DNA from: Escherichia coli
GTDB lineage: Bacteria; Pseudomonadota; Gammaproteobacteria; Enterobacterales; Enterobacteriaceae
Strand: one strand, 5' to 3'
NCBI RefSeq assembly: GCF_001677475.2
Contig: NZ_CP015229.1
DNA: 64,000 nt
Every line of letters starts with the position of its first letter. Positions within the stretch are counted from its first letter, which is position 1. A model generated the notes under the pieces. That model had not been told where the DNA came from and ran no database searches. It saw nothing but the letters and a program-made list of their open reading frames with translations. Shown one piece after another: positions 5,762 to 53,506 of this stretch. The position numbers and the translations under genes were made by a program.

Positions 5762-7018
5762 ATGCTCCATCCGCGAGCCAGAACCATGTTGTTATTATCG
5801 CTCCCCGCCGTGGCAATTGGGATTGCGTCCAGTCTTATTCTGATTGTGGTGATGAAAATCGCCTCGGTATTACAGAATTTGCTCTGGCAACGACTGCCGG
5901 GAACTCTGGGGATAGCCCAGGATTCACCTTTCTGGATCATCGCCATATTAACGCTAACAGGTATTGCGGTGGGGTTGGTTATCCGTTTCAGCCAGGGGCA
6001 TGCTGGACCAGACCCCGCCTGTGAACCGCTGATCGGCGCACCGGTTCCGCCCTCTGCGCTACCAGGACTTATCGTAGCATTAATTCTCGGTCTTGCTGGC
6101 GGCGTCAGCCTGGGGCCGGAACATCCGATCATGACCGTCAATATCGCCCTTGCCGTCGCCATTGGCGCTCGTCTGTTACCGCGCGTCAACCGAATGGAGT
6201 GGACTATTTTAGCCTCTGCCGGAACCATCGGCGCGCTGTTTGGCACACCTGTTGCGGCGGCGTTGATATTTTCGCAAACCTTAAATGGCAGTAATGAAGT
6301 GCCGCTATGGGATCGACTCTTTGCGCCGTTAATGGCAGCGGCGGCTGGTGCGCTGACGACAAGTCTATTTTTCCACCCCCATTTTTCGCTGCCCATTGCG
6401 CATTACGGACAGATGCAGATGGCAGACATTATCAGCGGTGCGATTGTAGCGGCGATTGCCATCGCTGCGGGGATGGTCGCCGTATGGTGTCTGCCACGGT
6501 TGCACGCAATGATGCATCAGATTAAAAACCCTGTGCTTATGCTCGGGGTTGGCGGGTTTATTCTCGGTATTTTGGGGGTTATTGGTGGGCCGGTTTCACT
6601 GTTTAAAGGGCTGGATGAGATGCAGCAAATGGTGATGAATCAGGCTTTCAGCACCAGTGATTACTTTTTACTGGCGGTGATTAAGCTCGCCGCTCTGGTC
6701 ATTGCCGCCGCCAGCGGGTTTCGTGGCGGGCGAATCTTCCCGGCAGTGTTTGTTGGCGTGGCGTTAGGTTTGATGCTACATGAACACGTTCCCGCAGTCC
6801 CGGCGGCAATTACTGTCTCCTGCGCTATTCTCGGTATGGTACTGGTGGTAACGCGCGATGGCTGGTTAAGCCTGTTTATGGCGGCAGTCGTTGTACCTGA
6901 TACCAATCTGCTACCGCTACTTTGTATCGTTATGCTTCCGGCATGGCTATTGCTGGCTGGCAAACCGATGATGATTGTGAATCGCCCGAAGCAGCAACCA
7001 CCCCACGATAATCTTTAG
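5762..7018 (+). CDS. yfeO: ClC-family putative ion channel YfeO
   Basis: 418 aa polytopic membrane ORF; N-terminus [20 protein letters not shown]; AAGGA RBS. Confidence 0.9.
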
Positions 7019-7132
7019 CAAAAAATGCTCTCCATCATGATTTAAGAGTTATGGCGATGAAACGGGGCTTTACCTCCCCGTAATATTGCGTTAACAGGCC
7101 GCTGACGGCTTCGATCGTGAAGGAGAATATCA

Positions 7133-7459
7133 ATGTTCAGGTCACTGTTTCTGGCGGCCGCCCTGATGGCTTTTACCCCGCTTGCGGCAAACGCAGGTGA
7201 AATTACCCTACTGCCATCAATCAAATTACAAATTGGCGATCGCGATCATTACGGTAATTACTGGGACGGTGGTCATTGGCGCGACCGTGATTACTGGCAT
7301 CGTAATTACGAATGGCGTAAAAACCGCTGGTGGCGTCACGATAATGGCTACCACCGTGGCTGGGATAAGCGTAAAGCGTATGAGCGTGGCTATCGTGAAG
7401 GCTGGCGCGACCGTGATGATCATCGAGGGAAAGGCCGTGGACACGGACATCGTCATTAA
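7133..7459 (+). CDS. ypeC: Small secreted protein YpeC (DUF2502), W/R/H/D-rich
   Basis: 108 aa; signal peptide [21 protein letters not shown] followed by low-complexity [18 protein letters not shown]...GHGHRH; GGAG RBS. Confidence 0.85.
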
Positions 7460-7483
7460 ACACATCCACCAATGGAGCACGAT

Positions 7484-7575
<92 letters not shown>

Positions 7576-7600
7576 TGTGCCTGGTACGACGCCAGTTGAA

Positions 7601-8848
<1,248 letters not shown>

Positions 8849-8851
8849 CTA

Positions 8852-8873
8852 AAACATAGCCTTTGCTATGTTT
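8852..8873. promoter_or_regulatory. MntR operator (palindrome) in the mntH leader
   Basis: AAACATAGC-CTTT-GCTATGTTT perfect inverted repeat immediately upstream of the mntH RBS; matches the MntR box as I recall it. Confidence 0.75.
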
Positions 8874-8890
8874 CATGCTATGCCAAACGA

Positions 8891-8910
8891 GAATGATTAT
8901 CAAATTCATT
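8891..8910. promoter_or_regulatory. Fur box candidate upstream of mntH
   Basis: GAATGATTATCAAATTCATT resembles the GATAATGATAATCATTATC Fur consensus; mntH is known to be Fur/MntR co-regulated. Confidence 0.5.
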
Positions 8911-12824: not shown

Positions 12825-12900
<76 letters not shown>

Positions 12901-15598: not shown

Positions 15599-15674
15599 GG
15601 GTGATTAGCTCAGCTGGGAGAGCACCTCCCTTACAAGGAGGGGGTCGGCGGTTCGATCCCGTCATCACCCACCA
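15599..15674 (+). tRNA. valU: tRNA-Val (UAC)
   Basis: GGGTGATTAGCTCAGCTGGGAGAGCACCTCCCTTACAAGGAGGGGGTCGGCGGTTCGATCCCGTCATCACCCACCA, 76 nt. Confidence 0.95.
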
Positions 15675-15718
15675 ACTACTTTATGTAGTCTCCGCCGTGT
15701 AGCAAGAAATTGAGAAGT

Positions 15719-15794
15719 GGGTGATTAGCTCAGCTGGGAGAGCACCTCCCTTACAAGGAGGGGGTCGGCGGTTCGATCCCGTCATCACCCACCA
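15719..15794 (+). tRNA. valX: tRNA-Val (UAC), second identical copy
   Basis: Identical 76-nt sequence to the first Val tRNA after a 44-nt spacer. Confidence 0.95.
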
Positions 15795-15798
15795 CTTC

Positions 15799-15874
15799 GG
15801 GTCGTTAGCTCAGTTGGTAGAGCAGTTGACTTTTAATCAATTGGTCGCAGGTTCGAATCCTGCACGACCCACCA
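15799..15874 (+). tRNA. lysV: tRNA-Lys (UUU)
   Basis: GGGTCGTTAGCTCAGTTGGTAGAGCAGTTGACTTTTAATCAATTGGTCGCAGGTTCGAATCCTGCACGACCCACCA, 4 nt after the second Val tRNA. Confidence 0.95.
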
Positions 15875-33049: not shown

Positions 33050-33086
33050 GCCTGATGCGACGCTTGCGCGTCTTATCAGGCCTACA
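33050..33086. repeat. REP element between cysA and cysM
   Basis: GCCTGATGCGACGCTTGCGCGTCTTATCAGGCCTACA, canonical REP, inside the cysPUWAM transcription unit. Confidence 0.8.

Positions 33087-53421: not shown

Positions 53422-53506
<85 letters not shown>

Follow-up and report, generated by a model that had tools for sequence, protein, structure and literature searches.

YpeC, a predicted periplasmic DUF2502 protein of the MarA/SoxS and Rcs regulons, and its possible role in the damaged cell envelope

What is the small, strongly charged protein encoded between yfeO and mntH, and does its position beside a manganese/iron transporter gene tell us anything about its function? The earlier note on this locus, made by reading the DNA, named the product YpeC, described it as a secreted protein with a low-complexity body, and proposed that it binds metal or polyanions in the periplasm, perhaps in connection with Mn/Fe status through mntH. 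We asked how these claims fare when the gene, its promoter, its relatives and its neighbours are compared across genomes and with the published record. All coordinates refer to the window, i.e. the whole 64 kb stretch of DNA that was analysed. The coding sequence and its ribosome-binding site are as follows.

7133 to 7459, + strand: ypeC coding sequence (ATG start, 108 codons plus TAA; supported by a Pfam match, an exact UniProt match and a codon comparison)
7120 to 7125, + strand: Shine-Dalgarno sequence AAGGAG (7 nt 5' of the ypeC ATG; kept in the alignment of orthologue upstream regions)

The name given to the protein holds. The translated product was 100% identical to UniProt P64542 (YPEC_ECOLI), the same protein was present on at least 1000 contigs, and it matched Pfam DUF2502 (PF10697) over the entire profile (positions 1-90 of 90, E = 3e-24, 85.4 bits; the gathering cut-off of the family is 27 bits), while a scan of YpeC against NCBIfam matched no family. 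Synteny pointed the same way: the gene order glk-yfeO-ypeC-mntH-nupC is that of E. coli, yfeO-ypeC-mntH occurred in this arrangement in 5267 of 5426 complete E. coli genomes, and RefSeq lists the gene between yfeO and mntH as 'DUF2502 domain-containing protein YpeC'. The Rfam scan of the whole window returned tRNAs only, none of them near ypeC. We are thus nearly certain that the gene is ypeC and that its product is a DUF2502 protein, exported by the Sec route and cut after Ala21 to give an 11 kDa soluble periplasmic protein with a folded core and a disordered tail. The gene, its family, the periplasmic prediction and the regulation by MarA/SoxS and Rcs are already on record.

Is the protein sequence under selection? 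The DNA around ypeC was ∼92% identical to E. coli, which left enough differences to compare. Between the window and E. coli PCN033, ypeC differed at 17 codons, all of them synonymous (0 non-synonymous), and for the two neighbours the corresponding numbers were 88 synonymous and 20 non-synonymous codon differences in yfeO, and 43 and 3 in mntH. The 114-bp region upstream of ypeC was also nearly unchanged (110/114 positions identical). As every one of the 17 codon differences is synonymous, YpeC is under strong purifying selection; if about three in four random changes alter the amino acid, an outcome of 0 out of 17 would be vanishingly unlikely without it. Judged by these codons, the selective constraint spans the tail of the protein as well as its core.

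We then considered the route of export and the composition of the mature protein.

7133 to 7195, + strand: Sec-type signal peptide, residues 1-21 (sequence features, and a fixed mature N-terminus behind two unrelated signal peptides)

The signal peptide reported in the earlier note stands on two kinds of evidence. The sequence itself reads as an n-region (MFR), 16 hydrophobic residues that make up the h-region, and the motif A-N-A, with the predicted cleavage between A21 and G22 (ANA followed by GE). The mature N-terminus does not vary across the family alignments, where it reads (G/A)EITL(L/V)P, and the paralogue-type sequences have in front of it an unrelated signal peptide whose end falls at the same place as in YpeC. 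The signal peptide contains no twin-Arg motif. The whole protein has neither a Cys nor a lipobox, the residues around the cleavage site being ANA and then G, and because there is no Cys YpeC is not a lipoprotein.

Mature YpeC (87 aa) consists to a large extent of a few residue types (R 18.4%, G 14.9%, D 11.5%, H 10.3%, W 9.2% and Y 8.0%) and has a pI of 9.98 and a GRAVY of -2.1. Set against the usual amino-acid frequencies of E. coli proteins, Trp was ∼6-fold, His 4.5-fold and Arg 3.3-fold higher. The calculated net charge of the mature protein was +7.6 at pH 7 and +17 at pH 5. Each of the charged, W/R/H/D-rich motifs quoted before could be located, namely RDRD at residues 50-53, WRK at 61-63, a 12-residue motif at 85-96 and the His-rich end GHGHRH at 103-108. 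The description of the body as low-complexity proved correct in part: it applies to the last ∼38 residues, but residues ∼30-70 form a domain that is conserved position by position.

7220 to 7345, + strand: DUF2502 core mini-domain, residues ∼30-71 (family conservation and AlphaFold)
7346 to 7456, + strand: cationic tail, residues 72-108 (subfamily motif and His-rich end; predicted disordered)

To define the core we used two alignments, one of 39 orthologues and one of 71 family members that included distant ones. In the family signature a hydrophobic strand precedes IGDRDxxGxYWDGxxWRDxxWW, and YpeC has all of the conserved positions. Among the 71 sequences, G35, G41 and W44 were invariant and P28, D38, Y43, D45, G46, W49, R50 and W55 were conserved in at least 90%; His and Cys were absent from these invariant and near-invariant residues. 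The YWDGxxW unit was present twice in tandem in 20 of the 47 distant relatives examined. AlphaFold2 was run twice, and in the run with the deeper alignment the core (mature residues 11-50) was predicted with a pLDDT of 80-90 as short β-bridges, one short helix and a β-hairpin.

Searches of the PDB with the YpeC profile and with the core returned no analogue of known function. The best match of the profile, 5wuf (E = 0.14), was rejected as compositional, with the tail aligned to an engineered His-tag/TEV linker, and the match of the core alone to SusD (E = 0.057) was set aside as weak and equally compositional. When the 71 relatives were scanned against Pfam at E up to 1, with WXXGXW repeats and RcnB among the families sought, DUF2502 was found together with scattered non-significant matches.

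The tail is of a different nature. Its predicted disorder is reflected in a pLDDT below 50 for mature residues 52-87; residues 71-108 have a pI of 10.6 and a charge of +6 at pH 7, which approximately doubles on going from pH 7 to pH 5 because of the histidines. YpeC orthologues have in common a nearly invariant 10-residue tail motif, and G86, Y87 and G90 were invariant in the 39-sequence alignment. The His-rich C-terminus that had been pointed out earlier turned out to be conserved: every one of the 68 intact orthologues had at least 3 His in their last 12 residues, with 3-14 His per tail, where the 16 orthologues kept outside this count were evident frameshifts, read-throughs or truncations. 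Among the distant relatives (n = 47) the ends were His/Asp-rich in 27, carried CPPGQAKKGxC in 9 and were of other types in 11.

How widely is this protein distributed? A search of 1.84 billion cluster representatives yielded 118 DUF2502 representatives (E up to 1e-3), all of them short single-domain proteins. The named members came mostly from the Enterobacterales (Escherichia, Citrobacter, Klebsiella, Enterobacter, Cronobacter, Chimaeribacter, Rouxiella, Brenneria and Serratia), the order to which the Rcs system belongs; beyond it, members were found in Azonexus and in a gammaproteobacterial MAG.

We next asked which signals lie upstream of ypeC. The promoter was deduced by phylogenetic footprinting.

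7014 to 7028, - strand: marbox (MarA/SoxS/Rob site) GCATTTTTTGCTAAA (pattern match and identity with a published site; overlaps the yfeO stop codon)
7043 to 7057, + strand: candidate RcsB-type site TAAGAGTTATGGCGA (conserved left half TNRGA, degenerate right half)
7062 to 7081: GC palindrome ACGGGG-N8-CCCCGT, preceding the putative -10 hexamer
7081 to 7086, + strand: putative -10 hexamer TAATAT (footprint conservation; no good -35)

Four blocks stood out in the comparison of ten genera: the marbox, TT.RGAGT at 7041-7049, CGTAATAT and the Shine-Dalgarno region. The octamer CGTAATAT, which holds the putative -10 hexamer, was the most conserved of all upstream blocks (7 of its 8 positions conserved in at least 90%), and Mangrovibacter alone departed from it, at three positions. 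A scan of 6850-7700 for consensus promoters and terminators found nothing, which for the promoter is explained by the poor -35. Together these features suggest a promoter that depends on an activator, has a poor -35 and starts transcription near 7093. A hairpin in the 5'-UTR (7097-7110) was also considered, and it is not claimed here: it has 4 base pairs, a predicted energy of -3 kcal/mol and weak covariation.

The marbox lies ∼72 bp (centre) upstream of the predicted start and is the sole match to the pattern GCAYNNWNNRYYAAA in the 64 kb window. It was conserved in 8-9 of the 10 genera despite a differing upstream gene, which in the orthologous loci may be yfeO, an aldo-keto reductase gene or ipdC. 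Its binding by MarA and SoxS is documented in orthologues. In ETEC the ypeC site is a MarA ChIP-seq peak whose sequence is identical to the marbox of the window, purified MarA bound a ypeC fragment in vitro at 0.3 μM, the highest affinity class of that study, and ypeC is among the E. coli SoxS ChIP-exo targets (PMC5684230). In Salmonella, the identical marbox sequence is a SoxS ChIP-seq site (PMC10268841).

The second candidate site, centred ∼44 bp upstream of the predicted start, resembles an RcsB box. When compared with the RcsB consensus TN(G/A)GAN4TC(T/C)NA (PMC7913699), the window sequence had 2 mismatches and a non-canonical N5 spacing, so that no canonical RcsB box was matched in the ypeC promoter at 1 mismatch or fewer. 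The left half-site (TAAGA, 7043-7047) occupied a conserved position in all ten genera. At the same place the Klebsiella sequence fits TNRGA-N5-TCYNA perfectly (0 mismatches), and that of Mangrovibacter departs from the N4 box, as published, by a single mismatch. A scan for an RcsAB box gave no match within 5 mismatches. The ypeC promoter may thus contain an RcsB-type half-site. Published expression data on E. coli orthologues show a strong dependence on Rcs: ypeC was increased 42-60-fold upon inhibition of LolCDE, together with wca, osmB, bdm, ycfJ and spy (PMC5105897), and was decreased 24-fold in an O157:H7 isolate with a disrupted rcsB (PMC5343319). The literature on the E. coli and Salmonella orthologues shows that MarA/SoxS target ypeC directly and that it ranks among the genes most strongly dependent on Rcs. 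Control by MarA/SoxS and Rcs places ypeC in the response to envelope damage and antibiotic stress, and not in Mn/Fe homeostasis.

What, then, might YpeC do when it is induced? The reading we prefer, at a probability of roughly 0.3, is that YpeC is an effector of the response to envelope damage that binds an anionic and/or glycan component of the envelope. According to this proposal, envelope damage would cause YpeC to accumulate in the periplasm, where the aromatic/Arg/Asp core would serve as a recognition module and the polycationic tail as an electrostatic anchor, and the net effect would be an envelope that is stabilised or shielded. Candidate ligands are peptidoglycan, the phosphates of the LPS inner core and lipid A, anionic phospholipids, osmoregulated periplasmic glucans and colanic-acid intermediates. 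The idea of glycan or polyanion binding is based on composition and analogy. The Trp/Tyr/Arg/Asp-rich module, sometimes in tandem, resembles surfaces that recognise glycans or phosphosugars, and tandem duplication of such a core is common for repeats that bind cell walls or glycans. Moreover, the conditions that induce the gene are all envelope lesions, and the polycationic tail, as read from its sequence, fits the binding of a polyanion. On the other hand, the His-rich tail of the orthologues is explained at least as well by metal binding. No data on a ligand, on binding or on a phenotype of YpeC were found in the searchable literature.

Metal binding is the best surviving alternative. Here YpeC would be a periplasmic metal binder or buffer whose HxHxH-type tail, perhaps with Asp and His of the body, chelates Zn, Ni, Cu, Mn or Fe and either sequesters the metal or hands it to a transporter. 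The conservation of the His-rich C-terminus makes it plausible that the protein can bind metal, and the His tail of YpeC may possibly do so; in addition to the intact orthologues, all 68 with a His-rich end, the 27 distant relatives with His/Asp-rich ends speak for this reading. Similar His-rich stretches serve periplasmic proteins such as ZinT, ZnuA and ZraP, and one distant homologue of YpeC lies 2.9 kb from an operon of the bufferin type, bufferins being copper-related. In the other direction, no His or Cys is found among the invariant residues of the family, 20 of the 47 distant relatives have no His-rich end (nine of these 20 carry CPPGQAKKGxC instead), and Pfam scans showed no homology to any metal-binding family. 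The known regulators of ypeC are Rcs and MarA/SoxS, and the published literature mentioning ypeC contained no metal-related study that we could find.

The neighbourhood of mntH bears on the same question, and its features are listed below.

7473 to 7573: REP/BIME palindromes in the ypeC-mntH spacer (inverted repeats 7473-7526 and 7544-7573)
7601 to 8839, - strand: mntH, Nramp Mn/Fe transporter gene, convergent neighbour of ypeC (ORF list, annotation and synteny)
8853 to 8872: perfect MntR palindrome at the mntH promoter (box scan)
8889 to 8907: Fur-like box at the mntH promoter (box scan)

As had been noted earlier, ypeC and mntH are transcribed convergently, from opposite strands, and 141 bp separate them. 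The REP core occurred 7 times in the window, where 0.87 occurrences were expected. Because transcription is convergent, an operon of ypeC with mntH is excluded. The MntR and Fur-like boxes lie at the opposite end of mntH, its 5' end, ∼1.7-1.8 kb downstream of the ypeC promoter region. The same scan that recovered both boxes at mntH, and so provided its own positive control, found no MntR or Fur box upstream of ypeC; the best Fur match there had 6 mismatches out of 19 and lay inside yfeO. The arrangement of the two genes in other genomes was as follows.

DUF2502 gene tail-to-tail with mntH: Klebsiella, Cronobacter, Mangrovibacter, Shimwellia, Enterobacter and Pluralibacter
PTS gene between the DUF2502 gene and mntH: Citrobacter and Atlantibacter
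DUF2502 gene in an unrelated neighbourhood: Brenneria, Azonexus and two metagenomic contigs

Six of the eight other enterobacterial genera thus retain the tail-to-tail arrangement, a point in favour of a connection to metal, but in the remaining two the PTS gene breaks the adjacency, and outside the Enterobacteriaceae it is absent. As the adjacency was seen within one bacterial family, the linkage of ypeC and mntH looks like inherited synteny rather than a functional cluster. The link of ypeC to Mn/Fe transport is positional only, and the suggestion that YpeC is tied to Mn/Fe status through mntH is not borne out, given the metal boxes at the far end of mntH, the broken adjacency and the known control by MarA/SoxS and Rcs. 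Taken together, we regard a role of YpeC as a metal binder or buffer as rather unlikely.

A further possibility is that YpeC acts in the periplasm as a holdase or anti-aggregation factor that works without ATP, in the manner of Spy, CpxP, ZraP or the disordered acid-shock protein Asr, its disordered charged tail keeping damaged envelope proteins soluble. The joint induction of ypeC, spy, degP and further genes of the envelope-stress response upon LolCDE inhibition (PMC5105897) would agree with this, as would a tail that is predicted to be disordered and highly charged, whose conserved short motif could fold on binding and whose charge climbs steeply at acid pH. YpeC nevertheless shows no similarity to the Spy, CpxP and ZraP families, and the part of the protein that is best conserved in the family is the folded aromatic core and not the tail, so we give a holdase function only a slim chance. 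The Rcs induction of Ivy and MliC prompted us to consider roles as a lysozyme inhibitor or as a decoy for antimicrobial peptides, which were set aside, as neither similarity nor supporting evidence was found. That ypeC is a mere compositional curiosity, a low-complexity ORF without specific function kept by chance or by overlapping signals, is effectively refuted by the evidence from selection and expression: the other long frames, three in number, also run open through this region and tens of E. coli assemblies carry frameshifted alleles, but the 17 to 0 ratio of synonymous to non-synonymous differences, the position-specific conservation across genera, the conserved promoter with a marbox that is bound experimentally in orthologues and the 24- to 60-fold regulation of the orthologous genes stand against it.

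If YpeC is indeed an envelope-damage effector, a bolder version of the proposal can be formulated, which we consider a long shot. DUF2502 proteins (YpeC and YaaX) would then represent a new class of Rcs-deployed periplasmic polycations, in which a Trp-rich mini-domain that recognises glycans or polyanions is joined to an Arg/Gly/His sticker-rich tail tunable by pH or metal, and which reinforce the damaged envelope by cross-linking or coacervating with LPS, osmoregulated periplasmic glucans, colanic-acid intermediates and peptidoglycan. A function for YpeC and YaaX would fill a gap in how the Enterobacterales respond physically to damage to the outer membrane, lipoproteins and peptidoglycan and to antibiotics, ypeC being among the genes most strongly induced when Rcs fires and a high-affinity MarA/SoxS target as well. 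It would also characterise a small domain without structural precedent.

Finally, how does YpeC compare with known systems? It resembles ZinT, ZraP and RcnB/YohN in being small, exported and endowed with His-rich or charged low-complexity segments. The genes for these proteins are under metal regulators, whereas ypeC is under Rcs and MarA/SoxS, and Pfam and PDB searches revealed no sequence or structural homology of YpeC to ZinT, ZraP/CpxP/Spy or RcnB. Proteins of the Spy, CpxP and Asr type are small, abundant in the periplasm and induced by envelope or acid stress, and YpeC is co-induced with spy. It has no homology to them, and its Trp-rich core is predicted to contain β-structure rather than to form an α-helical cradle. 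Pfam DUF2510, with its motif RYWDGxxWT, has a short YWDGxxW-type motif in common with DUF2502, and one DUF2502 member matched it at E = 0.11, which is not significant, and we claim no relationship between the two families.

The closest comparison is with the DUF2502 paralogue YaaX (E. coli b0005). YaaX has the same mature N-terminus and core as YpeC and, like YpeC, has a signal peptide and a basic tail and is induced through Rcs. It differs from YpeC in its unrelated signal peptide and in the lack of the 10-residue tail motif; moreover, the tail of YaaX is Pro/His-rich, whereas that of YpeC is Arg/Gly/His-rich. The yaaX locus (thrC-yaaX-yaaA) is apart from that of ypeC, and no marbox was found upstream of yaaX. 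The yaaX gene is listed as part of the RcsB regulon, and both colicin M and Lol inhibition induce it (PMC2731931, PMC3599342, PMC5105897). A third member, SMDB11_2817 of Serratia marcescens, is a DUF2502 protein like YpeC but has been described as closer to YaaX (PMC8470065); it was chosen from the transcriptome of a ΔgumB mutant, in which Rcs is activated, and its promoter became one of three luminescent Rcs reporters (PMC8470065).

The reading frame of ypeC is overlapped by three further long ORFs in alternative frames, which lie on both strands within window positions 7182-7568:

7182-7535, + strand, overlapping ORF of 117 aa
7221-7568, - strand, overlapping ORF of 115 aa
7226-7480, - strand, overlapping ORF of 84 aa

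These long ORFs are presumably a by-product of the codon usage of ypeC, which is rich in CGT, GAT, TGG, CAT and GGC. Public databases also contain frameshift chimeras whose first part is YpeC and whose remainder is read in the +1 frame (e.g. P0107, P0273 and P0274); these three come from tens of E. coli contigs, complete-size genomes among them. In several of the YpeC chimeras the shift point lies directly after a run of five A (7321-7325), and in others it lies elsewhere.

Upstream of the gene, two inverted repeats were found:

7062-7081, GC palindrome ACGGGG-N8-CCCCGT, directly 5' of the inferred -10 element, which it overlaps
7097-7110, small 4-bp hairpin (GGCC...GGCT) in the inferred 5' UTR of ypeC

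The GC palindrome is retained in Escherichia, Citrobacter, Klebsiella and Atlantibacter, and the Enterobacter version carries compensating changes (ACGAG...CTCGT). Covariation in the 5' UTR hairpin was only weak.

The spacer between the convergent ypeC and mntH genes is filled by REP/BIME-type palindromes, and the mntH promoter carries two candidate regulator sites:

7473-7526 and 7544-7573, REP/BIME-type palindromes of the ypeC-mntH spacer
33050-33081 and 53492-53505, further REP/BIME-type palindrome sites
8853-8872, perfect MntR palindrome AACATAGCCTTTGCTATGTT
8889-8907, Fur-like box (4/19 mismatches)

The REP core GCCTGATGCGACGC occurs in 7 copies in the window (at most 2 mismatches), compared to 0.87 expected by chance. 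Across the mntH start of E. coli PCN033, RefSeq annotates an 18-aa 'hypothetical protein' (L005 3421-3477), whose counterpart in the window would overlap the MntR box.

In PCN033 the paralogue yaaX lies tail-to-tail with yaaA (L014 5234-6346), as ypeC does with mntH; yaaA is annotated as 'peroxide stress protein', a gene tied to oxidative stress and iron. This convergent arrangement, common to both DUF2502 genes, may be a coincidence. Downstream of ypeC, Citrobacter and Atlantibacter carry a PTS EIIC/EIIB gene (L010 2233-3330 and L012 2013-3327) in the slot that mntH holds in the other genera.

The window also contains tRNA genes:

12825-12900, - strand, one tRNA-Ala(GGC)
15599-15874, + strand, two tRNA-Val(TAC), then tRNA-Lys(TTT)

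We take the same locus of E. coli K-12 to carry two Ala and three Val tRNA genes, and the copy numbers may thus differ.

In nine distant DUF2502 proteins of the 71-member family alignment, a conserved CPPGQAKKG(N/R)C end replaces the His-rich tail. A two-copy homologue with the C-terminal CPPGQAKKGRC is found in a gammaproteobacterial MAG (JACREF010000009.1, L006 1-5375), preceded by three same-strand genes without annotation; in this single case it lies 2.9 kb from a bufferin-type operon (ECF sigma factor, anti-sigma factor and BufA1/MbnB/HvfC/DoxX). Finally, one DUF2502 family member gave a weak match (E = 0.11) to Pfam DUF2510, which we take to be a family with an RYWDGxxWT motif.
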